A DNA stretch of 64,000 nucleotides from Porphyromonas sp. (GCA_041854825.1 JBHACZ010000024.1:2050-66049); one strand, 5' to 3'. Shown: positions 5,692 to 58,700, numbered from the stretch's first letter. Made by a program: numbers and translations. The notes: generated by a model not told the origin, from the letters alone.

Positions 5692-5922
5692 CCCTCTCCC
5701 GAGACCGAATAGAAATACTGCGCGCGCGATCACCCGCGCGCGTACGCGTACGGCAGACTAAGCACCGAAGTGTCACCCGAGTTCCTATTGAAGTGTCAGG
5801 GGAGACCCTATTGAAGTGTCGGGGGAGTCCCTATTGAAGTGTCCGAGGAGTTCCTACTTGAGTGTCCCTCGAGTACCTACTTGAGTGTCGAGGGAGTACC
5901 AAGGTAAGTGTCCGAGGAGTAG
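5692..5922. repeat. Family A array (A1): 7 x 23-bp units plus RY-alternating terminus
   Basis: GTGTC cores at 5770, 5793, 5816, 5839, 5862, 5885, 5908 (exact 23-bp period); unit about CCTATTGAAGTGTCnnnnGAGT; left end is the reverse complement of the terminus seen at 19335-19403. Confidence 0.95.
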
Positions 5923-6043
5923 CAAGGCATGAGGCAGGACACCCACACATTAGGACAGATCATGACACTGGGGCAAACCCTTACGCCCTCTGACATGTTC
6001 TATCTAAGCAATGCCCGACCGTTCGGGCTGTCATCTCACCAGT

Positions 6044-8263
6044 ATGCAGACAACTAACCATAAGCGAGTTAATTATCCCCTACTCGGGCTACACTGCGCA
6101 GGCTGTGCAGCACGCGCCACAGAGGTACTCAGTAGCCAGGAAGGCATCTCCTCGGCGATAGTCAATCTAGCCGCCTCCAGCGTCCTCATCGACTACGACC
6201 CTAGAGCCATCACCCCCGAGCGCATGAGTGCACTCATCACCGAAGCGGGCTACCAGCTCGTCATCGACCAGGACGAAGACGATGCCGAGGGACTAGACCG
6301 CCTCCATCGTGAGGCGTACCGCCAGCAAACGCGCCAGGCGATGACTGCCCTCATCCTCGGCGTGCCGATCATGGTACTCAGCATGATCTACATGCACGAG
6401 CCTATGGCACAGTACATCGTCTGGCTACTCACGACGATCGTGCTGGGATATGCTGGGCGAGGATTCTACTCCCGTGCATGGCGACAGCTTCGCACGGGCG
6501 GACTAGGAATGGACACGCTTGTCGCCCTAAGCACTGGAGTTGCATACATCTACAGCCTCGCCCTGCTGGTCATCTACACACTGGGCGGTATGGCAGAGGT
6601 ACCTCATCTCTACTTCGAGGCTTCGGCTATGATCGTCGCCTTCGTCCTCCTTGGCAAGTGGCTAGAGGCACGTGCCAAGGGGAGCACGACCGAGGCGATA
6701 CGCAAGCTCATGGGGCTTCAGCCTCGTGAGGTCATCCGTCTCGACAGCGAGGGACACGAAGTCCTCACCCCGATCTCTGCCCTTGCACTCGGGGACCACA
6801 TCGTCGTGCGTCCAGGCGAACGTATTGCCGTCGATGGGGTCATTCACTCTGGAGACTCATGGATCGACGAAAGCATGCTCACAGGCGAGTCCATCCCCGT
6901 ACACCGCACGACAGGGGATCGTCTCTTCGCTGGCACGCTCAATGGGCAAGGCGCACTCGTCCTGGAGGCTTCCGCCCTGCGTGCCGACACACGACTAGCG
7001 CGCATCATCCGTCGCGTCCGAGATGCACAGGGCTCGCGTGCGCCGATTCAGAAGCTTGTAGACCGCATTGCGGGGATCTTCGTCCCCATCGTGCTGGGGA
7101 TCTCGCTCCTGACCTTTGCCATCTGGCTCTTCTTCTCGGGATCGCTCGCCACTTCACTCGTGCCGATGATCGCCGTGCTTATCATCGCCTGTCCCTGCGC
7201 CCTAGGGCTTGCCACACCGACCGCCATCATGGTCGGCATAGGCAGGGCAGCCGAAGCAGGCATACTGATCAAGGATGCCGAGAGCCTAGAGCTATCCGCC
7301 TCGATCGACACCATCATCCTAGACAAGACGGGGACACTGACCACTGGACGCCCCCAACTCAGAGGCATCGAGTGGCTACGCCCCGAGACGCCCGAGCTAC
7401 GCGCTACCCTCGTGGCTATAGAGCGCCGTAGTGAGCACCCCCTAGCCCATGCCATCGTAGAGGGACTGGGTGGCACACAGGCGACACACGAGAAGGGGCT
7501 AATGGTGCGAGCCATCGCAGGGCGAGGCGTGCGGGCAACCCGCCCCGACGGCACACGCCTAGTCGTGGGCAATGCCGAGCTCATCACCGAGAGCGGACTT
7601 ATCCTAAGCTCCCACGAGCGCACCGCCCTAGAGCGCGTATATGAGGCTGGGCATACAGCCATCCTGTACGCCGACGCGGACTCGGTGATCGCTATCCTCG
7701 CCGTCGCTGACACACTCCGTCCCACGTCTACCGAGGCGATCCGCGGGCTTAGAGCGCGTGGGATTACCCCGATCATGCTTACAGGCGACCACGAAGGGGT
7801 AGCTCGAGCCATCGCTCACGAAGCGGGCATCGAGACCGTCTACGCTGGCGTACTGCCCGAGCAAAAAGCCGACATCGTACGCACCCTAAGAGCGCAGGGA
7901 CACGTCGTCGCCATGGTCGGTGATGGCATCAACGACAGCGCTGCCCTAGCCGAGGCATCTGTAAGCATCGCCATGGGAAGCGGTAGCGACATCGCCATAG
8001 AGACGGCGATGGTGACCATTGCCTCCGCAGACCTCCTGCGCCTCCCACTCCTCGTACGCCTCTCACAGATGACCCGCCAAACGATTAGGCTCAACCTTTT
8101 CTGGGCATTCGTCTACAACGTGCTAGCCATCCCCGTGGCGATGGGTGTCCTCTATCCCCTATGTGGCTACCTGCTCAGCCCCATGCTCGCCAGCGTGGCA
8201 ATGACCCTCAGTAGCCTAAGCGTCGTCCTAAGCAGTCTATCGCTCCGCTATCGCAAGGTGTAG
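6044..8263 (+). CDS. copA: Copper-translocating P1B-type ATPase
   Basis: N-terminal HMA GLHCAGC, YFEAS, CPCALGLATP, DKTGTLT, SEHP, GDGINDS motifs; start at ATG 6044 preferred (6011 possible). Confidence 0.92.
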   Translation: MQTTNHKRVNYPLLGLHCAGCAARATEVLSSQEGISSAIVNLAASSVLIDYDPRAITPERMSALITEAGYQLVIDQDEDDAEGLDRLHREAYRQQTRQAMTALILGVPIMVLSMIYMHEPMAQYIVWLLTTIVLGYAGRGFYSRAWRQLRTGGLGMDTLVALSTGVAYIYSLALLVIYTLGGMAEVPHLYFEASAMIVAFVLLGKWLEARAKGSTTEAIRKLMGLQPREVIRLDSEGHEVLTPISALALGDHIVVRPGERIAVDGVIHSGDSWIDESMLTGESIPVHRTTGDRLFAGTLNGQGALVLEASALRADTRLARIIRRVRDAQGSRAPIQKLVDRIAGIFVPIVLGISLLTFAIWLFFSGSLATSLVPMIAVLIIACPCALGLATPTAIMVGIGRAAEAGILIKDAESLELSASIDTIILDKTGTLTTGRPQLRGIEWLRPETPELRATLVAIERRSEHPLAHAIVEGLGGTQATHEKGLMVRAIAGRGVRATRPDGTRLVVGNAELITESGLILSSHERTALERVYEAGHTAILYADADSVIAILAVADTLRPTSTEAIRGLRARGITPIMLTGDHEGVARAIAHEAGIETVYAGVLPEQKADIVRTLRAQGHVVAMVGDGINDSAALAEASVSIAMGSGSDIAIETAMVTIASADLLRLPLLVRLSQMTRQTIRLNLFWAFVYNVLAIPVAMGVLYPLCGYLLSPMLASVAMTLSSLSVVLSSLSLRYRKV

Positions 8264-8372
8264 CAGCCCCACATGAAGATCTCGGGGCAGGTAGCCGCTT
8301 CGCTCCCGAACTTAATCCCCGCCCACCGTGTTTTTATCTCAGCAATTAGAGTATTAATCAATTAGCTCTCCT

Positions 8373-9083
8373 ATGAACTACAAAGCAATATGCGCCATCT
8401 GCGCCCTAGCCCTCACGGCTACATTCACCCTCGACGCTCAGAGTAAGGCACGCAAGGGCAAAGCCTCTACTCCTACCCCCGTGGCTACCGAAGTGGTCGC
8501 TGTGCCTGAGTTTACGCTCATCGAGCTTCCCTATAGCCCCGACGCACTCGCTCCAGCGATCAGTGAGGCAACGATCCTCCTGCACCACGGCAAGCACCTG
8601 CAGGGCTATGTCAATAACCTCAACCGCCTCAAGCGTGGCACAGCCTTCGAGAGCGACCCCAGCCTAGAGAGCATCGTGCGCCAGAGCAAAGGGAGCATCT
8701 TCGACAATGCAGGACAGATCCTCAACCACAACCTCTACTTCACTCAGTTTCGTCCCAGCGGTGTAGCCCCCTCGGGGGACATCCTTGAGCGCATCACACG
8801 TCAGTGGGGTAGCTTCGAGGCGTTCCAGACTGCCTTCGAGGGCGAAGGCGCGAAGCTCTTCGGCTCTGGCTGGCTATGGCTTGCCCAGCAGGCTGACGGT
8901 GCACTCGTCATCGTGCGCGAACCCAATGGTAGCAATCCCGTCGCTAGTGGGCTAACGCCCCTGCTCGGCATTGACCTCTGGGAGCATGCCTATTATCTCG
9001 ACTATCAGAATCGACGCGCCGACCATATTCGCGCCCTCTGGTCCATCATCGACTGGAGCGTAGTAGGCAGTCGCCTCCGCTGA
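8373..9083 (+). CDS. sod: Fe/Mn superoxide dismutase with N-terminal signal-peptide-like extension
   Basis: HHGKH, NAGQILNHNLYFTQF, FGSGW, DLWEHAYY metal-ligand motifs; about 45 extra N-terminal residues with a hydrophobic core. Confidence 0.95.
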   Translation: MNYKAICAICALALTATFTLDAQSKARKGKASTPTPVATEVVAVPEFTLIELPYSPDALAPAISEATILLHHGKHLQGYVNNLNRLKRGTAFESDPSLESIVRQSKGSIFDNAGQILNHNLYFTQFRPSGVAPSGDILERITRQWGSFEAFQTAFEGEGAKLFGSGWLWLAQQADGALVIVREPNGSNPVASGLTPLLGIDLWEHAYYLDYQNRRADHIRALWSIIDWSVVGSRLR

Positions 9084-9105
9084 GGCAGACAGCCTCTAAT
9101 AGTCC

Positions 9106-9148
9106 TCGCCCGAGACACTATAGCTGTAGTGCCTCGGGCGATTCCTTT
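9106..9148 (+). terminator. Hairpin terminator after sod
   Basis: TCGCCCGAGACACTA / TAGTGCCTCGGGCGA inverted repeat followed by TTCCTTT. Confidence 0.7.
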
Positions 9149-9194
9149 CAGTCTCTCCGCTCAGGTGGGACAACCATAGTCGAGGGTTATTTCG

Positions 9195-9202
9195 TACCTT
9201 TG
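9195..9202 (+). promoter_or_regulatory. -7 promoter element for acyltransferase
   Basis: TACCTTTG about 20 nt before ATG 9222. Confidence 0.6.
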
Positions 9203-9221
9203 TCTCTATACGAGACTACAC

Positions 9222-10199
9222 ATGCAAGACAAGAATATAAACACCTTCTCGCGCTCTGTCGCGGACTCCCTCAGAGGAGTCATGCAGCTAGGGATCGTCA
9301 TGTCTCACATGCACTATGCCGTCGGGGGTGTCCTACTGCCTATGATGATCGCCAACCGCCTCGGGACAAGCTTCATCGCCCTTTACTTCTTCATCTCGGG
9401 CTATGGGCTAATGGCTTCTCTGCTTAGGAGTGACACGCCCGAGCGAGCCTGGCACGGCTTCCTGCCTCGCAGACTTTGGGGACTAATGCGCCCACCGCTC
9501 ATCATCACGGTCATAGCGCTACTGACCATCCCCGCTATCAGTATGCCATCGCTCGGAGAGATGCTCTGGGAGGGAACGACTCCGATACCGAACGCATGGT
9601 TCGTCTTCGTCTTGGCGTTCCTCTACTCTGCCTTTTGGCTGTCGTTCCGCTTCGCAGCTCCTCGGCATAGCGCATGGGGTTTCGTTTGGCTTCTTGCACT
9701 AAGCCTCCTATCTATGGCATGGGCATATGTCCTAGGCTACGAGCGCGCTTGGTGGGTAACAACCCTTGGCTTCTGGGCTGGGAGTGTTTATGCCCGCTGG
9801 GAGGAGCAGATCTATACCGTCATCAGCAAGTGGTGGGGGCTACTCATCGCCCTCGGGCTTGTGGCGGGAATCATCCGCCTAGGCATAGAGGAGCTACTGC
9901 CACTGACCTACCTCGTCATCCCTATTGCCATCGTACGTCTGCTGGCACTCACACGCTACACGGCATGGATCGACTCAGGGCGACCAGCCCGCTGGATGCC
10001 TCAGTGGCTCGACCGTGGACTAAGAGCGGTACTCGGCTTCCTCTCATTGATTTCGTATGAGCTGTATCTCGTTCACGGGCTTATGATCATCCTCCTGCAT
10101 GGTTTATTCGCCAGCCCTGTCGTCTACAGCCTTGCTGTAATAGCCAGCTCTATCGCTGTGGCATATCTCGCCCACCGACTCATCAAGCTATTCCCCTAG
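9222..10199 (+). CDS. Acyltransferase family 3 (OafA-like membrane O-acyltransferase)
   Basis: SLRGVMQLGIVMSH, FFISGYGL, WFVFVL, SYELYLVH; about 10 TM helices. Confidence 0.8.
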   Translation: MQDKNINTFSRSVADSLRGVMQLGIVMSHMHYAVGGVLLPMMIANRLGTSFIALYFFISGYGLMASLLRSDTPERAWHGFLPRRLWGLMRPPLIITVIALLTIPAISMPSLGEMLWEGTTPIPNAWFVFVLAFLYSAFWLSFRFAAPRHSAWGFVWLLALSLLSMAWAYVLGYERAWWVTTLGFWAGSVYARWEEQIYTVISKWWGLLIALGLVAGIIRLGIEELLPLTYLVIPIAIVRLLALTRYTAWIDSGRPARWMPQWLDRGLRAVLGFLSLISYELYLVHGLMIILLHGLFASPVVYSLAVIASSIAVAYLAHRLIKLFP

Positions 10200-10225
10200 C
10201 CCACAAACCAGTACCCAGAGGTATA

Positions 10226-10272
10226 TACAGCTAGCCCCCTAGATACGCATGGTATCTAGGGGGCTAGCTGTA
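10226..10272. terminator. Bidirectional terminator hairpin (21-bp perfect stem)
   Basis: TACAGCTAGCCCCCTAGATAC / GTATCTAGGGGGCTAGCTGTA between convergent genes. Confidence 0.75.
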
Positions 10273-10289
10273 GATGCTCTCTCTGCCGA

Positions 10290-10853
10290 CTACTCCTCAC
10301 GCTCAGAGGCTGGAGTGAGGGTAAAGAAGCTGAAGTTCACTGAACCGTAGTCGCGATGCATGAGGAAATGGGGATGCTCTGCAAAGTCATACTCCCGCGG
10401 ATGCTCGACGACCACTAGGGCGCCCTCCCTAAGGCGACCACTCTCCAGGATAAGGTCTGGCAGGGTGGCGATCTCCGTCAGCTTGTAGGGAGGATCAGCG
10501 AAGACAAAGTCATACTCGGGCGATGCCTCAGCACGCAGGGAGCGAAAGGCATCCGTCTGCAAGACCCGCACGCTATCCTCCTCATGTAGCTGTGACACGA
10601 CGGAGCGAATGAAGAGAGCATGCTCACGCCTCTGCTCTACTGAGGTGACACGCGCACAGCCACGAGAGATCAGCTCTGCCGTAATGCTACCCGTCCCTGC
10701 GAAGAGGTCAAGGGCTACGGCTTCGTCGAAGTCTATATAGTGGGTGAGGACGTTGAAAAGGTTCTCCTTGGCAAAGTCCGTCGTAGGGCGGGCATTGAAG
10801 CTACGAGGCACGTCGAAGCGGCGTCTCTTGTGCTTCCCTCCGATGATACGCAT
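10290..10853 (-). CDS. rsmD: 16S rRNA m2G966 methyltransferase RsmD family
   Basis: MRIIGGKHK, RPTTDFAKENLFN, LDLFAGTGS, FADPPY, YGSVNFSFF. Confidence 0.9.
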   Translation of the reverse strand: MRIIGGKHKRRRFDVPRSFNARPTTDFAKENLFNVLTHYIDFDEAVALDLFAGTGSITAELISRGCARVTSVEQRREHALFIRSVVSQLHEEDSVRVLQTDAFRSLRAEASPEYDFVFADPPYKLTEIATLPDLILESGRLREGALVVVEHPREYDFAEHPHFLMHRDYGSVNFSFFTLTPASEREE

Positions 10854-10881
10854 AGGCAGTAGGTGGGGCTGTGGTTAGTGA

Positions 10882-11697
10882 CTAGAGAATGGTGAAGGGA
10901 TCTGCCGACACCTCACGCACACGAGGAGAGAGATGCTCGAGCATCTCCGAGACGAGAGTATAGCTCTCTGAGCGGGCTTCGTCATAGAGCAGGTGCAGGC
11001 TATCCGCCTCACCCTCTAAGCCTAGGCTTCTCCACACGGAGAAGGTGTAGAAGATCGCCTCGCCGACGAGCGTCGTCCTGTCCTCGGGCATTGCCCAGCC
11101 GAAAGTATTGAGATAGATCACCTCACCTGCTCGCAGTGCCACGACATCCATACCCTCTCTACGCACGAGCACATACAGATCGCATCCCGTGTGCTGGCGC
11201 GAGTATCTGCGCACACGCTCGATGATGGGGACGTAGTAAGGGATCGTCGTGAGCTGAAGGTGCATACGGCGCAGGAACTGATATAGTCCCTCGCTCCATG
11301 CCGAGACGATGACCTTAGGCTCATCACTCAGAGCATGCGTGAGGCATTGGTAGGGCGCACCTTCCCAATCCTTGCCTCCGACGATACTCAGCCAGTGCGA
11401 TGCCTGGTGCGCCTCATACAGCTCGGACGGCACGAGCGTAGAGAAGTATGGCTCATAGTAGAGCGTCACTTGATCGAAAGGAAGTGTTAGCTCGGGATGC
11501 CGATACAGCAGTTCGCGCACGGCTTCCTCTGCTGAGGCGTAGCCAGGCTCTAGCGACAGAGTACCACGCTCCAGCGTCGCCTGGGGTGAGGAGCTATAGC
11601 TAAGGGCAAAAGTAAGTCCATCCGACGAGAGCCGGATGGACATATTATACTGCTCAGCTTGGACGGCGTCGAGCCGTGCCAGGACTGATGAAGTCAT
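10882..11697 (-). CDS. DUF3822 family protein
   Basis: YNMSIRLSSDGLTF N-terminus and YLNTF motif; conserved Bacteroidota synteny upstream of rsmD. Confidence 0.75.
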   Translation of the reverse strand: MTSSVLARLDAVQAEQYNMSIRLSSDGLTFALSYSSSPQATLERGTLSLEPGYASAEEAVRELLYRHPELTLPFDQVTLYYEPYFSTLVPSELYEAHQASHWLSIVGGKDWEGAPYQCLTHALSDEPKVIVSAWSEGLYQFLRRMHLQLTTIPYYVPIIERVRRYSRQHTGCDLYVLVRREGMDVVALRAGEVIYLNTFGWAMPEDRTTLVGEAIFYTFSVWRSLGLEGEADSLHLLYDEARSESYTLVSEMLEHLSPRVREVSADPFTIL

Positions 11698-11711
11698 AAG
11701 GAGTGCGGGGC

Positions 11712-12347
11712 TTATTCCCAGTTACCGGTCTTCTTACCGATCTCCTGGAGCGAACCGATGCGCAGACCAGCGAAGCCATTCTTGCGTTCGAGGGCAAGAG
11801 CCGTCTTCTCCTTGCGACGACCTTCATCAAGGTCACCCAGGTAATCTTCATAGCTTACCTTGGCTTCGAATACAGACACGGGGATCGTGTCACGACCGAT
11901 TACCTGCTGGATGTAAGCCGTATCAACCTGGATCTTGTTGCTCGTATTAAGGACATTGTACAGCGTCTCGATATCGGTGCCATCCTTGATAAGGCTATCC
12001 TTGGCAGAGATCCACGTCGTGTCACGCTTGATGAGACCCTGGGCAGCAGCCTGTGCTTCCGTAAGTCCGCGCTCACGCATGTCGTCCGTGTAGTCGCCTT
12101 CAGCCGTAACGTAGTAGACCTTACCATTGCGCAGGAACTCGAGAAGCTCGTCACCTGCAGCGAAGCGGTGGTGTACATAGTCGAAAGCCTCCTGATAGCG
12201 AGCGATCTTCTTTAGCTGTCGCTGTAGTACAAGTTCACGCTCCTTCTGCGTGTCGTCGAACTTCACGGGAGCGAGTACGCTCTGCACCGTCAGATAAGCG
12301 AGTACCACGACTACGGCGAGTACTAGTACCTTGATTACTTTGTCCAT
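11712..12347 (-). CDS. Conserved Bacteroidota hypothetical protein (single N-terminal TM)
   Basis: 211 aa; N-terminal anchor; GLRIGS..GNWE C-terminus; usual first gene of the DUF3822-rsmD cluster. Confidence 0.7.
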   Translation of the reverse strand: MDKVIKVLVLAVVVVLAYLTVQSVLAPVKFDDTQKERELVLQRQLKKIARYQEAFDYVHHRFAAGDELLEFLRNGKVYYVTAEGDYTDDMRERGLTEAQAAAQGLIKRDTTWISAKDSLIKDGTDIETLYNVLNTSNKIQVDTAYIQQVIGRDTIPVSVFEAKVSYEDYLGDLDEGRRKEKTALALERKNGFAGLRIGSLQEIGKKTGNWE

Positions 12348-12448
12348 CGTTTTATCTTGTTTGTTTAGTTTTACTTACCTATGCTCGTTTGCTCAATCAG
12401 CCTCCAAATGTAAGAATATTTCTCCGAAAAAGACTAACTTCACTCCCA

Positions 12449-12467
12449 CAAAGATACAACAAAGATA
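12449..12467 (-). promoter_or_regulatory. Two tandem -7 elements for the 12347 operon
   Basis: TATCTTTG twice on the minus strand (12449-12456, 12460-12467). Confidence 0.55.
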
Positions 12468-12477
12468 TTATTCTACA

Positions 12478-13935
12478 TTGCTAACCGATCATTCCCCCCT
12501 CGCAGAGGAAATCGCCTCCCAAATGCCCTTCGCTCCGACCGATGGGCAACGGGGTGCCATCGCCCGCCTTACCGAATATATGCAGGACGATAGTCCCTAC
12601 ACGCTCTTCGTCCTGCGGGGCTATGCAGGCACAGGTAAGACCTCCCTCGTGCGTGCCATCACGAGCGCCGTAGAGCGCAGGGGAATGCGGGTCGAGCTGA
12701 TGGCGACCACAGGGCGAGCGGCGAAGGTGCTCGGCACCACCACGGGACGGGCAGCGACGACCATCCACCGCCGTATCTACCGCGCCACCACCGCCTCCAT
12801 CGAGGAGGGCGGCAGCTATAGCCTCGGGCAAGCCTCTGACACGCCTACCCTCTTCATCGTAGACGAGGCGTCGATGATCGGTGGACAGAGCAGCGAGCCG
12901 ACACCCTTCGGCTCAGGCAACCTCCTAGACGATCTATTCGCCTACGTCTGGTCAGCAGACAGCTCCCGCCTCATCATCATCGGCGACAATGCTCAGCTAC
13001 CGCCCGTAGGGAGTAGCATCAGCGACGCACTCTCACGCGAGGCGCTTGAGTCGCGCTATGGCCTGCGCGTCTACGAATATGAGCTGACCGAGGTCGTCCG
13101 CCAAGAGGAAGGCTCGGGCATCCTACACCAAGCCACCGCCCTGCGCAACGTCCTCCTCGAGCATCCCGATGCAGACGACCATGAACCCCTGCCCCTATCC
13201 CTGCACCTAGGTCATCACCCCGATGTGCGTATCGTCACGGGTGTCGATCTCATCGACACTATCGACGCTGCCTACCGCCGATACGGGCGTGAAGACGTGC
13301 TAGTCATCACCCCCTCCAATAAGCGTGCCCTTACCTTCAATCTCGGCATCCGAGCCCAAGTCCTCGACTTCGACGAAGAGATCGTCCGTGGCGAACAGCT
13401 CATCGTCGCGCGCAATAACTATACCTACACCCAGCGACGCGACCGATCCGACTTCATCGCCAACGGCGAAATGATCACCCTCGGGCGCATCTCTCGCTAC
13501 CACGACATCTACGGACTGCGCTTCGCCGATGCAGAGATCTACCTCCCCGAGCGCGATATAGAGCTCGATGCCCGCATCCTCATCACCTCCCTGGCAGACG
13601 AGCAGGCACAGCGCACCTACGATCAGCGACTGGCACTCTACGAAGCCCTCGCCCTAGACTACGGACAGCAGGGAGGCGTCGCCGACATACGGCGAGCCAT
13701 CCGCCGCGATCCCTACTGGGGTGCGCTAGAGGTCAAATACGGCTATGCCGTCACAGCCCACAAAGCGCAGGGCGGGCAATGGAGCTGTATCTTCATTGAC
13801 CTCGGGCTGGTCAAGATCCTCCCCAGCGACCGCAATATGGTACGCTGGCTCTATACAGCCATCACCCGAGCTACCTGCGAGGTCTATCTGGTCAATCCGC
13901 CCGAAGGCTTCTGCATCGAAGCACCCCGCCACTAA
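12478..13935 (+). CDS. RecD-like SF1B ATP-dependent helicase/exonuclease V alpha family
   Basis: GYAGTGKT Walker A, FIVDEASM, GDNAQLPPV, LTEVVRQ, YAVTAHKAQGGQW, WLYTAITRA; TTG 12478 preferred start (ORF track extends to 12331). Confidence 0.88.
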   Translation: MLTDHSPLAEEIASQMPFAPTDGQRGAIARLTEYMQDDSPYTLFVLRGYAGTGKTSLVRAITSAVERRGMRVELMATTGRAAKVLGTTTGRAATTIHRRIYRATTASIEEGGSYSLGQASDTPTLFIVDEASMIGGQSSEPTPFGSGNLLDDLFAYVWSADSSRLIIIGDNAQLPPVGSSISDALSREALESRYGLRVYEYELTEVVRQEEGSGILHQATALRNVLLEHPDADDHEPLPLSLHLGHHPDVRIVTGVDLIDTIDAAYRRYGREDVLVITPSNKRALTFNLGIRAQVLDFDEEIVRGEQLIVARNNYTYTQRRDRSDFIANGEMITLGRISRYHDIYGLRFADAEIYLPERDIELDARILITSLADEQAQRTYDQRLALYEALALDYGQQGGVADIRRAIRRDPYWGALEVKYGYAVTAHKAQGGQWSCIFIDLGLVKILPSDRNMVRWLYTAITRATCEVYLVNPPEGFCIEAPRH

Positions 13936-14016
13936 GTCTCGCCCCAAGTAATCGCACCCTCCCTAGGGGAGCAAAATATCGTCACCTAGGCAGTCGAACT
14001 AGACCACTCACCCGAG

Positions 14017-14134
14017 ATATTCTTAAGTTCACGTCGTGGTCTGTATAGATCACGACGTGAACTGTACAGACCACGACGTGAATTGTACAGACCACGACGT
14101 GAATTGTACAGACCACGTCGTGATCTGAAGAAAT
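14017..14134. repeat. Family B array (B1): 5 x 21-bp palindromic units
   Basis: CACG(A/T)CGTG cores at 14030, 14051, 14072, 14093, 14114; unit CACGACGTGAATTGTACAGAC; imperfect inverted ends ATATTCTTAAGTT / ATCTGAAGAAAT. Confidence 0.95.
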
Positions 14135-14382
14135 GTCACCCGAAGGAGACTAGTTCTCTCGCCTTAGACATCGAATATCTACCGCCTCGGCACTACCCTT
14201 TGGCTTGAATAGACAGGCATACGCCCCATCGAGAGGCAAACGCTGAAGGAGCAAAGCGGATATTCCCCTTGGCATCCTCTATCACCTCGGGCAACACTGC
14301 CTACATACAGCGCGACCGCACGCCTTCCATGAGAGGAAGCACGTGCGGTCGCGCGCTAATTGAATGGGGATATCCCCGCGTC

Positions 14383-15048
14383 TTACTTCGTTACGAGGAC
14401 GAAGCTAAGCTCGATCTCGTCGTCGATGAACTTGTCACCGAGACCAGTGAAGAAGCTCTTAGAGCCATACTTCACATTCCAGTCGGCGCGGTTGATGCGG
14501 AAGGTTGCGCTCTTGAAGGTCGTGTTGTCAGCACCGATCTCGATAGCTGATACAGGGATAGTGATATTCTTCGTCACGTCCTTGAGCGTGAGGTTACCCT
14601 TGAGCTCCTTGATCGTCGAGAGGTCTACACCCTCAGCAGGCACGTCCGTCAGCTCAAAGCGTGCAGTAGGATACGTTGCCACTTCGAAGAAGTCCTCGTT
14701 CTCGAGGTGTGCCTTGAGCATGTCTGCCATTTCACCCTGGATGTCTTCGACGATGATACCGTTCATCGCGATCACCACGTGACCACCATAGAGCTTGCCA
14801 TCTACTACAGATACAGAGCCCTCAGATACGGGGAGCTTACCGAAGTGTTCACCACCAGGCTTGAAGCCCTTCCATGTGAGGTAGGATGCTGCAGAGTCTA
14901 CATCGAGCACGCCGTCAGAGGCATAAGTGCTCGCAGCTACAGAGTCACCAGCCGACACGGCTGTACTAGAGTTAGCACCACCGGTGCAAGACACAGCGAC
15001 AAGTGCCGTCGCTGCCACGCCCATGAGGGCAATAATCATTTTCTTCAT
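14383..15048 (-). CDS. YceI-family lipoprotein
   Basis: Lipobox LVAVS-C after MKKMIIAL; WKGFKPGGEHFG, HLENEDFFEVATYPTARF, GNLTLK, INRADWNVKYGS. Confidence 0.85.
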   Translation of the reverse strand: MKKMIIALMGVAATALVAVSCTGGANSSTAVSAGDSVAASTYASDGVLDVDSAASYLTWKGFKPGGEHFGKLPVSEGSVSVVDGKLYGGHVVIAMNGIIVEDIQGEMADMLKAHLENEDFFEVATYPTARFELTDVPAEGVDLSTIKELKGNLTLKDVTKNITIPVSAIEIGADNTTFKSATFRINRADWNVKYGSKSFFTGLGDKFIDDEIELSFVLVTK

Positions 15049-15198
15049 ATTAATTCTTTGTTCTCTTGTTTCCTTACATTGTTGTAACTTCTCAATAACC
15101 CGAGTATGTATCAAAATGTTTTCAGACCATTAAAAAGTTTATTCCTCAAGGCTCGAAACTCTATCATTCTGTCTTCTCTCGCCTCTGAGCACATACGC

Positions 15199-15241
15199 AA
15201 AAAAAGAGGCGTGTCGTAGCTCTGTGACTACGACACGCCTC
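15199..15241 (-). terminator. Intrinsic terminator after tRNA-Lys
   Basis: GAGGCGTGTCGTAG / CTACGACACGCCTC stem followed by a T7 run on the minus strand. Confidence 0.85.
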
Positions 15242-15251
15242 CGAAAGAAAG

Positions 15252-15324
15252 TGATTCGCCTGGGGCTCGAACCCAGGACCCCATCATTAAAAGTGATGTG
15301 CTCTGCCAACTGAGCTAGCGAATC
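15252..15324 (-). tRNA. tRNA-Lys (anticodon UUU)
   Basis: Minus strand GATTCGC..GCGAATC-A acceptor, TAGCTCAGTTGGCAGAGC D arm, CATCA-CTTTTAA-TGATG anticodon arm, CTGGG-TTCGAGC-CCCAG T arm. Confidence 0.95.
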
Positions 15325-15382
15325 GACCCAATTAAGCAATCTGAAGTGGACTACATGATCGCTAATAGTCCGATTGCGCCTG

Positions 15383-15390
15383 CAAAGGTA
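15383..15390 (-). promoter_or_regulatory. -7 promoter element for tRNA-Lys
   Basis: TACCTTTG on the minus strand. Confidence 0.6.
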
Positions 15391-15476
15391 GGCAAAGTAT
15401 TTGACTTGAGCAAAAGGGAGGGCTATTCACACAAGTATTCAGACACTTACGCCCTCCACAGTGTCACAGGAGCCAG

Positions 15477-16160
15477 CTAATCCTTGCGACGCAGGAGGTC
15501 AGGACGCAGACGCTGAGTGCGCTCGAGAGCCTGATCCATCTTCCACTGCTCTATGCGTGCGGCGTGTCCACTGAGCAGCACCTCGGGGACATCCCACCCA
15601 TTATAGCTCGCAGGGCGGGTGTAGATAGGAGGTGCAAGGAGATTGTCCTGGAAGGTGTCGCTCAGCGCACTCTCCGCATCCCCGATAGCTCCGGGGATAA
15701 GGCGGGCAATGGCATCCGTCATCACTGCTGCTGCCAGCTCTCCCCCCGTGAGGACATAGTCACCGATAGAGATCTCACGAGTGATCAGATGCTCGCGGAC
15801 GCGGTAGTCGATCCCCTTGTAGTGACCGCAGAGGATAATGACATTCTTGAGAAGGCTCATTTCGTTGGCAATCCCTTGATTGAAGGTCTCCCCGTCGGGC
15901 GAAGTAAAGATCACCTCATCATACTCACGCTCCGCACGCAGAGCAGAGATCACCTTATCTATAGGCTCGATCTGAAGGATCATCCCAGCCTCACCACCGA
16001 AGGGATAGTCATCGACACGCTTCCATCTATTCGTGGAGTAGTCTCTGAGGTTGTGGATATGTAGGTCGAGGAGTCCCTTGTCTCGGGTACGCCCCACGAT
16101 CGAAGCCGATAGCGGGCCATCGAGTAGCTCGGGCACTACGGTAATAATATCTATGCGCAC
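15477..16160 (-). CDS. trmD: tRNA (guanine-N1)-methyltransferase
   Basis: [43 protein letters not shown]; GTG 16160 preferred because TAACTTTG (16191-16198) overlaps the longer start. Confidence 0.95.
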
Positions 16161-16243
16161 GTCTGTATACCTATTCTTGTTTGTAGGGAGCAAAGTTAGA
16201 CACTATCGCCCAATGGCACAAGGGCAACGACCCAGACACAGCA

Positions 16244-16278
16244 CAAGGGCGATCGGATGCTATATCCGATCGCCCTTG
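16244..16278 (-). terminator. Hairpin downstream of the carboxyltransferase gene
   Basis: CAAGGGCGATCGGAT / ATCCGATCGCCCTTG 15-bp perfect stem. Confidence 0.65.
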
Positions 16279-16312
16279 CCGTCAATAAGAGGCATCAGCC
16301 TCTTAGGTTAGA

Positions 16313-18181
16313 CTACTTCTTGCCTCTGCGACGAGCGTTGATGACGTGGCGTACCTCCTCGAGCTTCTCTACACGGCGTAGCGTCTCGGGTTCAGTCTCC
16401 GTCCAGACCTGCTCGGTCTCAGCAGGACGCACATAGGCGAGGGCTTCACCCTTGCGTACCGTAGCACCCTGAGCGAGAACCTCGGTGATACGACCCGTGA
16501 AGAATGAGTTCACTGGCTCGATATAGCCAGCCACCGTCTGGATGAAGCACAGAGGCTCACCAGTCTTCACTTCGGTACCGATAGCAGGAGCCGTAGAGAA
16601 GTCAGCGGGGTCTACCTCCCAGATGATGCTACCTGTAGCAGGAGCCGTGATGGGCTCTGTGCCTGCACGCTTAGCCTTGAGAGCATCGGCTTCGTTGTAG
16701 CCCTGCTTCACGAGCTGCGCCGTACGTGCCTTGTCCACTTCCTCATGGAAGCGCTGCTTAGCTACACCACTCTTGTAGAGACGGTACTGAGCATCGTGCA
16801 TCGCCAGCTCGAAGAGTTCTTCGTTGTCCTGACCATACTCCCAGCCGTTCTCGTCCATCTCCTTGCGGTACTCATCGAGCGCGTCGGGATAGTTGCCCTG
16901 TGGATCTTCGTCAGAGAACTCGTGACCTTGAGCCTTAGCCAGCTCGATGATCTCGGGAGCGAGAGGACCAGGGAGGCGACCACTCTTCCCGAGGATCATA
17001 CCCCAGGTATTCTTGTCGATTGCCATCCAGCGTTCCTTGCCTGTAACGAGGTTGTACACGTTCATGAGGGCAACGTTCTTGACGTACTGGCTGAATGGCG
17101 TCACGAGGGGTGGATACCCGAGACGTGGCCATACGTACTCTACTTCGTTGAATAGGCGCACGAGCAGGTCATCGACGCTCAGCTCGGGTTCGCCCTTACC
17201 GCGCAGGTGCATATTGATACCAGCATGTACACCCTTGAGGTCAGCCATCATCGATCCCATCATACCGCCAGGCAGACCACAGCCTACGAGCAGAGAGGTC
17301 ATCAGCATGTTGCTAGGCTCGATGAAGAGACCCAGGAAGTCGTCGATGAACTCCTGCGTGAGCGAACGAGCGCGCATGTAGGCATCCATATTGATCTCGG
17401 GCACCTTGAAGCCTGCATCGTGGAGCATCTCGCGGATCGTGATCACGTCTGGATGGATCTTACCCCATGAGAGTGGTTCCATCGCTACGTCGATGATGTC
17501 CGCACCATTGCGGCACACCTCTAGCATAGAGGCTACAGAGAAGCCAGGGCCAGAGTGACCATGATACTCGATAATCACCTGAGGATGCTTGGTCTTAATT
17601 GCCTTGACGAGGCGACCAAGGAAAGCGGGACGACCGACACCTGCCATATCCTTGAGGCAGATCTCAGCGGCACCAGCCTCGATGAGCGTGTCTGCGAGGT
17701 TAGAGTAATACTCTACTGTATGTACAGGCGAGCTGGTAATACAGAGCGTTGCCTGAGGGATCATCCCAGCCTCGAGGGCGTACTTGATAGAGGGGATGAT
17801 GTTGCGTGGGTCATTGAGCCCGTCGAAGATACGGGTAATATCTACACCCTGAGCCTTCTTCACCTTGTACATCAGACGACGCACGTCGGCAGGTACAGGG
17901 AACATACGCAGACCATTGAGACCACGGTCAAGCATGTGGGTCTGGATGCCAGCCTCATTGAAATACTTCGTGAAGCCACGCACCGCCTTGTTGGGGTTCT
18001 CCCCATACATCAGATTCACCTGCTCGAAGGCACCGCCATTGGTCTCTACACGAGCGAAGCACCCCATCTCTACGATCACTGGCGCGATGCGCTCCAGCTG
18101 GTCGAGGCGGGGCTGATACTTACCGCTCGATTGCCACATATCGCGGTAGAGCAGGCTAAACTTAATTTCTCTCTGTTCCAT
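16313..18181 (-). CDS. Oxaloacetate decarboxylase alpha / pyruvate carboxylase subunit B-like carboxyltransferase
   Basis: YRDMWQS, CLKDMAG, HGHSGPG, GYPPLVTPFSQ motifs of the HMGL-like carboxyltransferase; C-terminal biotinyl-fold-like region lacking MKM. Confidence 0.85.
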   Translation of the reverse strand: MEQREIKFSLLYRDMWQSSGKYQPRLDQLERIAPVIVEMGCFARVETNGGAFEQVNLMYGENPNKAVRGFTKYFNEAGIQTHMLDRGLNGLRMFPVPADVRRLMYKVKKAQGVDITRIFDGLNDPRNIIPSIKYALEAGMIPQATLCITSSPVHTVEYYSNLADTLIEAGAAEICLKDMAGVGRPAFLGRLVKAIKTKHPQVIIEYHGHSGPGFSVASMLEVCRNGADIIDVAMEPLSWGKIHPDVITIREMLHDAGFKVPEINMDAYMRARSLTQEFIDDFLGLFIEPSNMLMTSLLVGCGLPGGMMGSMMADLKGVHAGINMHLRGKGEPELSVDDLLVRLFNEVEYVWPRLGYPPLVTPFSQYVKNVALMNVYNLVTGKERWMAIDKNTWGMILGKSGRLPGPLAPEIIELAKAQGHEFSDEDPQGNYPDALDEYRKEMDENGWEYGQDNEELFELAMHDAQYRLYKSGVAKQRFHEEVDKARTAQLVKQGYNEADALKAKRAGTEPITAPATGSIIWEVDPADFSTAPAIGTEVKTGEPLCFIQTVAGYIEPVNSFFTGRITEVLAQGATVRKGEALAYVRPAETEQVWTETEPETLRRVEKLEEVRHVINARRRGKK

Positions 18182-18222
18182 ACAGTTGTACAGTATTAAA
18201 GTCTATATTGATGGATTATATT

Positions 18223-18975
18223 CTATCTCTGGATAAGCTGAAGCGTGTGTACCCATTGCAGAGCTGACAGGGCTGCCGTCTCTGTCCTAAGGCGTGTATC
18301 ACCTAGGGTGGTGGGATGTAGCCCCTGTGCCTGCGCCTGCTCGACCTCCTCACGAGAGAAGTCTCCCTCTGGGCCGATGAAGAGACACACGTCGCCCGCA
18401 CCCTGATAGTGAAGGTGTGGGAGCGCGCGGGGCGCAATGATGCCGTCTGCCTCGCGACAATGTAAAAGAAGCTGAGTGGCTCCGCTCGTCTGGGCGATGG
18501 CATCCGAGAGGCTAACCTCCGAGCTAAGGGTAGGCAAGACCGCTTTCTGTGATTGCTTCATGGCGCTCAGCATAATGCGCTCGAGCCGCTCGGTATTGAT
18601 ATGTTTGCGCTCGCTGTGCTTGACCCTAAGCAGGAGGACCCTATCGACACCTACCTCTACGGCTTTCTCTAGGAGCCATTCCATGCGTTCGATGGCTTTC
18701 GTCGGAGCAAGAGCAAGCGTGATCTCACCCTGCCAGGTCTTCTGCCACGTGTGTCGCTCGAGGATCTGTACCCTACAGAGTCGTTTGCTGATCTCTGCGA
18801 TCTCCGAGAGGTAAAACGTCCCTCGCCCATCACAGACGACAACACGATCACCGCACTGCCCGCGCAGTACGCGCAGACAATGCCCAGTCTCTCCCTCTGG
18901 GAGCAAGCCATCTACCGCCACATCAGGCGCATAGAATATGGGCAAATCGCTCATCTGTGACTCGGGGTCTATCAT
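18223..18975 (-). CDS. rsmE: 16S rRNA m3U1498 methyltransferase
   Basis: HCLRVLR, EKAVEVG, AMKQS, FIGPEGDFS, LGDTRLRTETA. Confidence 0.92.
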   Translation of the reverse strand: MIDPESQMSDLPIFYAPDVAVDGLLPEGETGHCLRVLRGQCGDRVVVCDGRGTFYLSEIAEISKRLCRVQILERHTWQKTWQGEITLALAPTKAIERMEWLLEKAVEVGVDRVLLLRVKHSERKHINTERLERIMLSAMKQSQKAVLPTLSSEVSLSDAIAQTSGATQLLLHCREADGIIAPRALPHLHYQGAGDVCLFIGPEGDFSREEVEQAQAQGLHPTTLGDTRLRTETAALSALQWVHTLQLIQR

Positions 18976-19004
18976 TCCTCGGTGCTACCAGTTAATTCCA
19001 TCGC

Positions 19005-19012
19005 CAAAGTTA
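19005..19012 (-). promoter_or_regulatory. -7 promoter element for rsmE
   Basis: TAACTTTG on the minus strand. Confidence 0.55.
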
Positions 19013-19220
19013 AAGGATTCTACCGAATCCACCATCAAAAAACACGACAAATCCCGCACGCTCCGCTCTACACCTCGTAGCAAGGTTGCCCAGCTGTGCA
19101 GGGCGACCATCGCAAGCCCCGACTTTCGCCCATACGCCCGACCGCTTCAAGATGCTCCCCATCATCTCCGCACACCCATTTTTGTCTATCCCTCGCACAC
19201 TCCCCCGTCTACCTACTGAG

Positions 19221-19403
19221 TACTCCTCTGACACTTCAATAGAGAGTCCTCCGACACTTCAATAGGGACTCGAGGGACACTTCAATAGAGACTCGGGCGA
19301 GTCCCTATTGAAGTGTCGGAGGACTTATCGATACTCAGTCAGCCGTACGCGTACGCGCGGGTATATACGCGCGCACACGTATTATATATTCGGTCTCGAG
19401 AGG
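19221..19403. repeat. Family A array (A2): 3 units, 1 inverted unit and RY terminus
   Basis: GACAC cores at 19230, 19253, 19276 (23-bp period); inverted unit at 19299-19324; terminus GCCGTACGCGTACGCGCGGGTATATACGCGCGCACACGTATTATATATTCGGTCTCGAGAGGG. Confidence 0.95.
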
Positions 19404-19474
19404 GTGCTAAGCATGAGAGCAAGCAGATCTGCCCTGCCCTCAGAGTGTATTATGCGCTAGATCACGATAGACAG

Positions 19475-19549
19475 ACACCCGCAGGAGAGCTGGAGAGGTG
19501 CAGTCATCCTCTTACAGATCCTGCACCTCTCCAGCTCTCCTGCGGGTGT
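19475..19549. terminator. 29-bp perfect-stem hairpin downstream of GT4 gene
   Basis: ACACCCGCAGGAGAGCTGGAGAGGTGCAG / CTGCACCTCTCCAGCTCTCCTGCGGGTGT with a 17-nt loop. Confidence 0.6.
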
Positions 19550-19584
19550 TTGCATTTAGCCCTATCGGGCGCGCCCCATTGGGG

Positions 19585-20772: not shown

Positions 20773-20811
20773 TAAGTATACTATAGTTTGATTGATGACT
20801 GTGCAGGGAAG

Positions 20812-23700: not shown

Positions 23701-23791
23701 CTCGCGTTCGGGTTATCTCTGTTTATATTGATAGATCCTGCGCTACGCCCTCCTAGACGCATAGAATGCTAGGAGACAAAGCACAGGTTTG

Positions 23792-23799
23792 CAAAGCTA
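23792..23799 (-). promoter_or_regulatory. -7 promoter element for polA
   Basis: TAGCTTTG on the minus strand. Confidence 0.5.
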
Positions 23800-23886
23800 T
23801 CCATTTCCCCGCACCTAGGCAAATCCTCTCCAGAGCATCCCCGCTCCGCCTGTCCCTACGTTCGTCCCCCGCCTCTCCACCACCGC

Positions 23887-24003
23887 AACTTAGGTTTTAT
23901 CACTGAGACGACTTACCCTAAGTCGTCCTCGGGACTTACAGTAAGTCGCCGAGGCGACTTAAGTTGAGTCACTTCGGCGATATACTGTAAGTCATCTTAG
24001 AGG
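23887..24003. repeat. Family C array (C1): about 5 x 23-bp units with 15-bp palindromic core
   Basis: Cores GACTTAnnnTAAGTC-like at 23887 (degenerate), 23910, 23933, 23956, 23979. Confidence 0.93.
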
Positions 24004-24076
24004 CTCAATGTCAGCATCGGGCAGAGCCTAACGTAGCACAGCATACCTGGTTTGCTTGCGTGCCTCAATAGAGAAC

Positions 24077-24111
24077 GGGGATCATACGACTGCCTTGGTC
24101 GTATGATCCCC
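24077..24111 (-). terminator. Hairpin after dpp7
   Basis: GGGGATCATACGAC / GTCGTATGATCCCC 14-bp stem. Confidence 0.7.
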
Positions 24112-24159
24112 GCTCCCTATTGCTCTGTGCGCCCGAGGGACATCAGAGCTTTGGAGGAA

Positions 24160-28892: not shown

Positions 28893-29016
28893 ATATCTCA
28901 CAAAGATAACAAGAACTATCGAATACCTCTGCGCCCTACCCCCTCCATCTCACACGGCAACAGGTGCAGATCCCCCACGATCCGAATATCACCCCTGTCA
29001 CCCCTCCCCGCAAGGC

Positions 29017-29235
29017 TCTCCCGACACATCACTGAAGTCTCCCTCGACACTTCAGTGATGTCTCCCCCGACACTCAAGTAGACACTCCCCAGACACTCAA
29101 GTAGGGAGTCACTCGACACTCAAGTAGGGACTCGGGTGACTCCCTACTTGAGTGTCCGAGGAGTACCAAGGTGCTAGTCCCCTTACACGTACGCGCGTGC
29201 GTATATACGCGCGCACGCGTATATAATATCGGTCT
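29017..29235. repeat. Family A array (A3): 5 units, inverted unit(s) and 42-nt RY tract
   Basis: GACAC cores at 29023, 29046, 29069, 29092, 29115 (23-bp period); inverted CCCTACTTGAGTGTCCGAGGAGTACCAAGGT; terminus ending ATATAATATCGGTCT. Confidence 0.95.
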
Positions 29236-29342
29236 ACGGGGATGGTACGATTTTTCTCATCGGGAGACCTCCCAGTTCGCCCCTCCATCACAGCCCCCAT
29301 ACCGACGGCACAAGTAGTCCGAATATACCCTGGACATGTCGG

Positions 29343-35325: not shown

Positions 35326-35354
35326 TTCTTCAGTTCACGTCGTGACCTGAAGAA
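35326..35354. repeat. Family B minimal element (B2): one core between both inverted ends
   Basis: TTCTTCAGTT-CACGTCGTG-ACCTGAAGAA, with the same ends as B1 and B3. Confidence 0.85.
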
Positions 35355-36387: not shown

Positions 36388-36410
36388 TCGTTGGATAGGT
36401 CTTGGGGGGA

Positions 36411-38967: not shown

Positions 38968-39047
38968 AATGCTAGTGGGGTAAGGGTGTAACGTCGAGAG
39001 AGAAGGCAAGCGAAGCGATGCACGCTCTGCGCCTCCTCAGATAGAGA

Positions 39048-58163: not shown

Positions 58164-58171
58164 TACCTTTG
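58164..58171 (+). promoter_or_regulatory. -7 promoter element for tRNA-Ile2
   Basis: TACCTTTG upstream of the tRNA. Confidence 0.6.
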
Positions 58172-58225
58172 TGCCTACAAATGGGGGAGGACGCTAATCT
58201 CTAGCACCTCACACAGACCCCGATC

Positions 58226-58299
58226 GGTCCTATAGCTCAGTCGGTTAGAGCACCTGACTCATAATCAGGGAGTCCTTGGTTCAAGCCCAAGTGGGACCA
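58226..58299 (+). tRNA. tRNA with CAU anticodon, most likely tRNA-Ile2 (lysidine)
   Basis: GGTCCTA..TGGGACC-A acceptor with C4-G69/C5-G68, TAGCTCAGTCGGTTAGAGC, CCTGA-CTCATAA-TCAGG, CTTGG-TTCAAGC-CCAAG. It lacks the initiator C1-A72 mismatch and GGG/CCC anticodon stem. Confidence 0.9.
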
Positions 58300-58306
58300 C
58301 AGACCT

Positions 58307-58349
58307 AAAGCATTCGGCGTATCTCTCTGAGGTAGGCCGAATGCTTTTT
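58307..58349 (+). terminator. Terminator after tRNA-Ile2
   Basis: AAAGCATTCGGC / GCCGAATGCTTT followed by TT. Confidence 0.75.
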
Positions 58350-58479
58350 CTATATCAGTCGAGGATCGAGGCAGAGCCAAGGGCAAACACGGCAGTCTGC
58401 TTAGGCAGATCTTCCTCGAGAGACCCTGCCAAGGAAACACCCCTACCGCGAGAAGAGAAAAGACACCAATGCCCGAGCA

Positions 58480-58573
58480 CTTCTTCAGTTCACGTCGTGG
58501 TCTGTACAGATCACGACGTGAATTATACAGACCACGACGTGGTTTATACAGAGCACGACGTGAACTGGAGAAG
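58480..58573. repeat. Family B array (B3): 4 x 21-bp units
   Basis: Cores at 58491, 58512, 58533, 58554; ends CTTCTTCAGTT / AACTGGAGAAG. Confidence 0.95.
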
Positions 58574-58587
58574 TCTTCCTCGAAGCG

Positions 58588-58700
58588 TCCCTAGACACTT
58601 CCTCGATGTGTCCCCCGAGTGCCTACTGAAGTCTCCCCCGACACTTCAGTAGACACTCGGGGGACACATCAATAGGGAGACGAGGGAGACCCCAATAGAG
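58588..58700. repeat. Family A array (A4): about 5 degenerate 23-bp units with internal fold-back
   Basis: GACAC-like cores at 58594, 58617, 58640, 58663, 58686; GATGTGTCCCCCGAGTG / CACTCGGGGGACACATC inverted repeat. Confidence 0.88.

Follow-up and report, generated by a model that had tools for sequence, protein, structure and literature searches.

The 64,000-nucleotide stretch of Porphyromonas sp. DNA analysed here (hereafter the window) carries 11 short tandem arrays with units of 21 or 23 bp lying between genes, and the question raised by this locus is which role such phased arrays play and which protein, if any, reads them. The window corresponds to C24:2050-66049 of a 2.0-Mb draft genome (102 contigs, 54% G+C), the assembly of which is 91% complete and misses contigs shorter than 3.1 kb; arrays were detected with Tandem Repeats Finder (TRF), run both on the window and genome-wide. 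The HU-HIG proteins (profile PF18291) are the likely array readers, because nearly every HU-HIG gene of this genome has an array of its own family just before the promoter. The preferred reading, with a probability of about 0.55, is that the array families B, C, D and their kin would serve as docking arrays of the HU-HIG paralogues, each family having one autoregulatory copy together with dispersed orphan cassettes.

HU-HIG genes and the arrays before their promoters

The HU-HIG gene of the window matches the PF18291 profile with 73 bits (E 2.9e-20; curated cut-off 26.2 bits), and D1, an array of family D, is situated 136 bp upstream of it. The arrangement is as follows.

40889-40986, no strand: D1, family D cassette, four units of 21 bp (TaCCAAgCtTTGGta + TATaTA), proximal edge about 60 bp 5' of the -7 box of the HU-HIG gene
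41044-41051, plus strand: -7 box TATCTTTG of the Bacteroidetes type TAnnTTTG, read from the sequence, between D1 and the HU-HIG start codon
41115-41735, plus strand: HU-HIG gene, 206 aa, PF18291, HU-like N-terminal domain and C-terminal winged helix-turn-helix (wHTH)

The whole genome contains 17 matches to PF18291, including two classical HU proteins of 87-90 aa. When an array of period 19-25 was sought within 450 bp 5' of the start codon, it was found for 12 of these 17 matches and for 196 of the 1325 other genes (14.8%), which gives a binomial P = 3.3e-7; since two of the five exceptions are the classical HU proteins, the count amounts to 12 of 15 true HU-HIG genes. A comparison of coordinates by eye showed no array 3' of the classical HU genes. 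The distance from array to gene is 94-320 bp for the 12 HU-HIG genes and 94-243 bp for the long paralogues (205-215 aa), all nine of which carry an array. In five paralogues, whose arrays all differ, 37-62 bp separate the proximal end of the array from a TAnnTTTG -7 box further downstream, so that repeated dyad sites were found at a fixed position 5' of the gene's own core promoter.

The arrays at the nine long paralogues belong to families K, I, D, G, D, H, B, M, and F, and those at three short paralogues to C, L, and L. The rare families G, H, I, K, L, and M, which number only 2-5 genomic copies, each have one copy at an HU-HIG gene. Array type and protein relatedness also run in parallel: the window protein and its closest paralogue (73% identity) both have a D array upstream, the members of a pair at 85% identity both have L, a pair at 63% identity has K and I arrays that are both of the form ATCA..TGAT, and a group at 66-71% identity has D, G, and H arrays, all of the form xCCA..TGGx + TATrTA.

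According to the AlphaFold2 model (mean predicted local distance difference test score 84.8), the window protein consists of an HU-like N-terminal domain and a winged domain with three helices and a beta wing (residues 142-200). In Foldseek comparison the N-terminal domain matched HU proteins and the HU-HIG structure 4FMR, while the C-terminal domain matched ArsR/SmtB and MarR wHTH proteins and the centromere binder AspA; on the predicted model and these matches the protein belongs to the wHTH subclade of HU-HIG. Ten long paralogues align over their full length, with conservation of a 13-residue C-terminal motif followed by ...G.G.H..Y. In the study of Burroughs, Kaur, Zhang, and Aravind (2017, PMC5499826) HU-HIG was described as a lineage-specific expansion of Bacteroidetes marked by rapid divergence, gene loss, and the lack of operon partners or conserved gene linkage. 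The HU-HIG protein of the window can be regarded as the candidate cognate reader of family D.

Anatomy and inventory of the cassettes

The 11 arrays reported by the initial annotation were all recovered by TRF, and their anatomy was borne out by reading of the sequence. The observation is confirmed and was in fact understated: genome-wide TRF rows (113 of period 21, 133 of period 22, and 76 of period 23) merge into 270 arrays, which occupy 20.7 kb or about 1% of the genome and fall into at least 12 families, and the window samples this larger set. The numbers of genomic loci are 20 for A, 28 for B, 30 for C, 41 for D, 53 for E, and 26 for F. The last two are abundant 22-bp families with no copy in the window; E is the commonest of all, with unit AAAACATCGATGTTTT and CGGG-type linkers, and F has the unit GAGTATAGTACTATACTC + ATAT, while at least 8 small families (G to M and others) are built in the same way. 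The strict period claimed earlier holds genome-wide, with a core-to-core spacing of 21 in B and D and 23 in A and C; in E and F it is strictly 22. Fourteen matches to the pattern of the B unit were counted in the window, the expectation from 100 shuffles being 0.00. The intergenic location, too, can be extended to all family elements of the genome, as the apparent overlaps concern only spurious open reading frames (ORFs) of 100-160 aa. The remaining elements of the window are listed below.

5701-5930, plus strand: A1, family A, leader GAGACCGAAT...(CG)n...GTACGCGTACGG followed by about 7 units of 23 bp (..CTATTGAAGTGTC..), between divergent RNase HII and P-type ATPase genes
14020-14132, no strand: B1, family B cassette, termini TTCTTAAG / CTGAAGAA, 5 units of 21 bp (CACG-W-CGTG + TGTACA dyads), between convergent helicase-like and YceI genes
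19213-19397, minus strand: A2, family A, reversed, three units and one inverted unit (fold-back), leader end ..ATTCGGTCTC
23888-23993, no strand: C1, family C cassette, 4 units of 23 bp (GACTTAC-W-GTAAGTC + GC-rich linker), between polA and S46 peptidase (dpp7-like) genes
29012-29236, minus strand: A3, family A, about 5 units and one inverted, leader with a long alternating CG/TA tract
35326-35354, no strand: B2, single-unit B cassette, 29-bp near-perfect palindrome TTCTTCAG-TTCACGTCGTGAC-CTGAAGAA
47684-47769, no strand: C2, family C cassette, 4 units, between convergent 6PGD and C10 peptidase genes
50683-50776, no strand: D2, family D cassette, 4 units, termini GCTCTG / CAGAGATG, at a divergent junction, 5' of the C10 peptidase gene
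58480-58573, no strand: B3, family B cassette, 4 units, termini CTTCTTCAG / CTGGAGAAG, downstream of a tRNA gene
58588-58705, no strand: A4, leaderless family A fold-back, about 4-5 units, abutting B3

The number of units had been described as varying from 1 to 7, which does not hold at the genome scale: it is exactly four in 24 of 27 B elements, 21 of 24 D elements, and 22 of 24 F elements, and three or four in C. The dyad character of the units in B, C, and D was found again, and the conserved ends proved to be inverted termini, namely TTCTTSAG/CTSAAGAA in B, CATCTCTG/CAGAGATG in D, and inverted flanks of about 88 bp in F. Most arrays are not free minisatellites but bounded cassettes, in which inverted termini enclose very nearly four units. 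The statement that the families share no sequence is right only in part, since B, D, G, H, and I have a common CCA/CAC...TGG/GTG dyad theme.

Small size, lack of coding capacity, terminal inverted repeats, and 20-53 copies per family (as judged from the B, D, and F termini) are generic traits of MITEs (miniature inverted-repeat transposable elements). It is conceivable, though unlikely, that, like BrickBuilt, the cassettes are ordinary non-autonomous elements of this kind, mobilised in trans by transposases that the draft lacks, and that their adjacency to HU-HIG genes reflects insertion preference or hitch-hiking. Bounded elements of near-constant size with inverted termini agree with such an origin, as do the all-intergenic position central in gaps, the lineage-specific families with fast turnover (E is common to the nearest relative only, at non-orthologous sites there), the presence of B in the distant Parabacteroides, and the closest B copies, which are 95-99% identical over only 89-99 bp and have unrelated flanks. 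The target-site duplications proposed as a check for mobility were not found around 20 sharp-ended B elements, the ends of other families being too diffuse to judge. No Y1/RAYT (REP-associated tyrosine transposase; REP, repetitive extragenic palindrome) or rve transposase gene is present in the genome, and the termini of the only abundant insertion sequence (IS), which is ISAs1-like, are unrelated. The absence of transposase genes is no proof, because the assembly is 91% complete and lacks contigs shorter than 3.1 kb, in which IS bodies could be hidden; still, to move at least 12 unrelated families, a genome of 2 Mb would have to encode many transposases or one that reads structure. Moreover, random insertion cannot explain why families of 2-5 copies are each found at an HU-HIG promoter, why related arrays stand at related paralogues, and why the distance from the -7 box is fixed.

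Several specific candidates for a mobile or other origin were tried and rejected. For a RAYT/REP system, PF01797 (Y1_Tnp) is absent from the genome, with positive controls. Ends of the Tn7/Mu/Tn552 type with tandem 22-23-bp transposase sites were discarded in view of the lack of an rve gene, the varying orientation of the inner units, and the lack of a 2+2 pattern. The ISAs1-like IS was rejected as a partner, its termini being unrelated to the cassettes and its flanks random; this IS is seen at about 40 contig ends (e.g., C24:74796-74935, just outside the window) in four end variants, with terminus CAGGGCAACCGCATCAAA and the N-terminal sequence MKYFETIPDPR, its body being missing as contigs below 3.1 kb were dropped. 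A shared CCCGAG motif is a hexamer common throughout the genome, and restriction-site decoys were dismissed as the palindromic hexamers inside arrays are not avoided in the genome. Phage or plasmid origin found no viral matches, and the plasmid matches are only pieces of the P. distasonis chromosome with B-like arrays.

As each unit is a dyad (family A excepted), the whole element forms an imperfect palindrome, and hairpin folding exceeds that of shuffled sequence with z from -5.4 to -10.8 in seven multi-unit elements and -3.6 in the single-unit B2. Every element thus folds far better than shuffled sequence and several lie between convergent genes or near terminators, which would suit structures like REP or bacterial interspersed mosaic elements (BIMEs), that is, RNA or DNA hairpins or cruciforms acting as terminators, mRNA stabilisers, or supercoiling sinks. 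Such a role is highly improbable in the light of arm comparison: complementarity at variable positions within a copy and between copies was 0.48 and 0.56 in B, 0.55 and 0.52 in D, and 0.48 and 0.47 in F, with no compensatory change in the arms and likewise in the flanks. Because the arms of one copy pair no better than the arms of different copies, palindromic symmetry is a property of the family consensus and not of selection on pairing, and the uncompensated arm mutations therefore favour a double-stranded, sequence-read site over a hairpin. The highest array density was found in divergent gaps, where there is nothing to terminate, neither RAYT nor an Rfam family was found (the only Rfam matches were two tRNAs), and the strict two-turn period with loop-less perfect dyads suits protein dimers better.

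The supposed special tie to types of operon junction was not sustained. Gaps carrying an array make up 10% of tandem, 20% of convergent, and 32% of divergent gaps, while arrays per kb of intergenic DNA number 0.68, 0.77, and 0.84, respectively. As the per-kb density is similar in all junction types, the arrays mark gaps between transcription units and no particular type of junction. Within the gaps they are central: the median distance to a facing stop codon is 199 bp, and that to a facing start codon 240 bp.

Family A is distinct from the others. Its unit is no dyad, its leader is one-sided (GAGACCGAAT, CG-alternating tract, GTACGCGTAGGG), and often one unit is inverted, which leads to a fold-back; the far end shows only a short ..GAGTAyCAAGGTG, without an inverted terminus matching the GAGACCGAAT of the leader. 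The alternating purine-pyrimidine (CG/TA) tracts of the leaders (window 29184-29225, 19344-19382, and 5719-5752) are candidates for Z-DNA, and this alternation is better conserved between copies than the exact sequence. B and A elements adjoin at two unrelated loci (window 58480-58705 and G000 C54:17073-17345), which suggests either nested insertion or a common preferred site.

The gene of a C10-family cysteine peptidase (47895-50501), which includes an I69 inhibitor prodomain as well as a C-terminal domain for type IX secretion, is flanked by the C cassette C2 on one side and the D cassette D2 on the other. The only other periodic TRF rows in the window are short repeats in coding sequence that have no relation to the intergenic families: a 21-bp repeat of 2.1 copies at the end of a 517-aa ORF (53057-53099) and a perfect 18-bp repeat of 2.4 copies inside a 156-aa ORF (54077-54119).

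Arrays in related genomes and the possible role of HU-HIG proteins

The array design is wider than the array sequences. In ten sampled Porphyromonadaceae genomes 4-13 arrays of period 20-24 were found per 100 kb, mostly with 2.5-5.5 copies and with sequences own to each genome, and no arrays were seen in two genomes of other Bacteroidales families (62 and 100 kb sampled). One element of each of six families gave no BLAST match in 40 relatives, and no match was obtained against P. gingivalis ATCC 33277 (G046), P. asaccharolytica (G041), G057, and G052. Family E alone is common to G060, the nearest species representative (63-73% protein identity to the genome of the window), where it occupies at least 45 loci at non-orthologous sites. 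Family B was also found in Parabacteroides distasonis and many contigs of human-gut metagenomes, where the elements likewise have four units of 21 bp and termini of the TTCTACAG type; it was absent from 400 other Bacteroidales genomes sampled.

Array-bearing gaps were also tried as markers of synteny breaks, and this was rejected: none of 17 is syntenic in G060, but neither is any of 21 long array-free gaps. In a gap compared between G000 C7:8941-9720 and G060 C2:11671-11925 there is an unannotated small conserved ORF (<100 aa), and about 480 extra bp of the window's genome (G000), including an E cassette, are lacking in G060.

Arrays before HU-HIG genes recur in the relatives. Of the 14 HU-HIG genes in P. 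gingivalis ATCC 33277, 5 are preceded within about 70-340 bp by an array of 3-5 units with a length of 22-23 bp, and no two of these arrays belong to one family; among these genomic sites, three BrickBuilt units lie about 117 bp upstream of the HU-HIG gene at 961,562, which by position and by the table in PMC4596501 is the 'DNA-binding protein' beside BrickBuilt_14. In Parabacteroides a B-like four-unit array is followed 109 bp on by a 213-aa HU-HIG+wHTH gene, and in G057 the sole long paralogue has a 21-bp array 89 bp upstream. As regards strain polymorphism, one locus of P. distasonis is invariant across 26 contigs.

Some further observations were made in these relatives. In human-gut contigs L080-L199 (e.g., L109:4880-5779) a block of about 300 bp, composed of the B-like four-unit array and the 5' end of the HU-HIG+wHTH gene, occurs in at least 4 left-hand contexts, and orthologous gut-metagenome copies differ freely in the central base of CACG-N-CGTG. 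P. asaccharolytica contains composite palindromes (L072:15225-15400, L075:17211-17400, L076:12318-12482) in which a central pair of 21-bp direct units (GAAACTTCGGAGGAATC) is framed by three 22-bp units (core TCTCCACGTGGAGA) on one side and three inverted 22-bp units on the other; they are very abundant despite only one intact HU-HIG gene.

The docking of HU-HIG paralogues on their arrays might proceed as follows. The cassette consists of about four head-to-tail dyad units of 21-23 bp, two helical turns each, between short inverted termini, and the cassettes of B, C, D, F, G, H, I, K, L, and M would most likely each dock one HU-HIG paralogue. A dimer with two winged helices would fit a dyad unit, so the two winged-helix domains of an HU-fold homodimer may read both half-sites of one unit, and the two-turn period would place successive dimers, four per cassette, on one face of the helix. 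The array copy observed just 5' of the promoter of the paralogue itself may provide autoregulation by sensing how much protein is soaked up elsewhere, while the other 2 to about 40 copies per family, seen dispersed as bounded intergenic cassettes, would be orphan sites; protein and array would have diversified together into many orthogonal protein-site pairs. A wider version is offered tentatively, as possible rather than probable: each HU-HIG paralogue may be a sequence-specific reader of its own array of about four units, autoregulating at its own promoter and occupying dozens of orphan copies between transcription units, so that orthogonal protein-DNA address pairs would structure or insulate intergenic DNA, BrickBuilt being one such family.

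A number of facts weigh against the docking of HU-HIG paralogues on these arrays. No HU-HIG gene is preceded by an array of family A (4 of 11 window arrays) or E (53 loci), although both are of the phased design. In P. asaccharolytica arrays abound, but the only intact HU-HIG gene lacks one upstream, and G060, for all its family E loci, has E at none of three intact HU-HIG genes and no convincing array at any of them. Only 12 of about 260 arrays are linked to such a gene, orphan arrays also lie at convergent junctions where no promoter needs control, and the B-linked paralogue of this genome is only 31% identical to the Parabacteroides protein behind the B-like array. In the study of Burroughs et al. 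(2017, PMC5499826) sequence-specific binding by HU-HIG was judged unlikely. Finally, the adjacency to HU-HIG genes could instead stem from preferential insertion of cassettes upstream of these genes.

The same association and co-variation would be expected if the cassettes were selfish DNA and each HU-HIG paralogue a host counter-measure neutralising one family, in an arms race like that of the KRAB zinc fingers, with the copy at its own promoter acting as a sensor. The lineage-specific expansion, rapid divergence, and gene loss of HU-HIG, for which Burroughs et al. (2017, PMC5499826) suggested a part in biological conflict, are in line with this explanation, and the number of families roughly follows that of the paralogues, with at least 12 families beside 15 genes in this genome and 1-2 families beside 1 intact gene in P. 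asaccharolytica. It seems quite unlikely, as nothing indicates that the cassettes are harmful or currently mobile and the most runaway-like families, A and E, are precisely those without a partner; sequence data alone cannot separate it from an architectural or regulatory reading.

The initial annotation had offered two options, protein-binding arrays for nucleoid organisation or insulation, and non-autonomous elements. Both are upheld in part: the elements are bounded, dispersed, non-coding cassettes, and for B, C, and D the genomic link to HU-HIG speaks strongly for a cognate class of proteins; any function in nucleoid organisation or insulation would be putative. The HU-like paralogues that the annotation had named as objects of a test were an apt choice.

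If docking on the arrays is true, it would be the first function for the HU-HIG family, one of the largest Bacteroidota-specific families of DNA-binding proteins, which has a solved structure and no known target. A family-specific non-coding partner gives each paralogue a testable target and offers an explanation for the rampant expansion and divergence of HU-HIG. It would account for about 1% of this genome and for comparable fractions in at least 9 other sampled Porphyromonadaceae genomes, and would link BrickBuilt, the only described element of the kind, to a candidate binding protein in the genetically tractable P. gingivalis. Orphan arrays, if occupied, could separate transcription units from each other as insulators or topological barriers, and no such mode of bacterial chromatin organisation is described in the literature searched.

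Comparison with known systems

The closest described element is BrickBuilt, a minisatellite/MITE of P. gingivalis with 1-23 units and long unlike leader and tail, which was not linked to HU-like proteins (Klein et al., 2015, PMC4596501). In ATCC 33277 its unit is GAGACCATAGTATCCTCTCATAT, present in 10-23 copies between the long unlike leader and tail segments. The resemblance lies in the same bacterial family and in spacer-less tandem 23-nt units of a bounded, multi-copy, exclusively intergenic element (families A and C here have period 23), and the leader of family A ends in an IS5-like GAGACC terminus. Identity of family A with BrickBuilt is nevertheless not supported. The family A unit reads ..CTATTGAAGTGTC.., a BLAST search of the element against ATCC 33277 (E<=0.01) gave no match, and family A has the single GAGACC terminus only, whereas BrickBuilt has an IS5-like terminal inverted repeat in both leader and tail. 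The cassettes of this genome differ from BrickBuilt also by short inverted termini and about four dyad-symmetric units. Family A is therefore an analogue of BrickBuilt and not a member.

REP/BIME and REPIN-RAYT systems of Proteobacteria comprise families of short extragenic palindromes, each tied to a cognate gene flanked by its repeat, and some are bound by a protein of the HU/IHF family (the IHF-binding RIP/RIB class). Here, too, several families of short extragenic palindromes coexist in one genome and are tied to a candidate cognate gene near its own repeat. The differences are that there is no RAYT gene and no hairpin covariation, that the candidate partner is a non-enzymatic DNA-binding protein, and that the period of 21-23 bp is strict and the unit number fixed, in contrast to the alternating orientations and variable linkers of REP/BIME.

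Centromere and operator arrays such as ParR-parC (R1, pSK41), AspA (pNOB8), and the heptads of the omega repressor have about 4-10 head-to-tail units 5' of the gene of the binder itself, with cooperative binding on one face and autoregulation. The likeness consists in head-to-tail short units upstream of the gene of the candidate binder and in the C-terminal domain of the window protein, which matches the AspA wHTH fold in Foldseek. The arrays of this genome differ in being chromosomal, in numbering hundreds in many families, and in the HU-like dimer core of the candidate binder, and no partition NTPase was seen beside the HU-HIG genes.

In full-text literature searches no account was found of either the multi-family four-unit arrays or their HU-HIG link. 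Within the HU-HIG clade as defined in PMC5499826, the window gene and its 14 paralogues are members that form an expansion with rapid divergence and without operon partners, as described; no conserved genomic linkage is reported there, whereas here a conserved non-coding partner, the phased array, stands upstream of most members.

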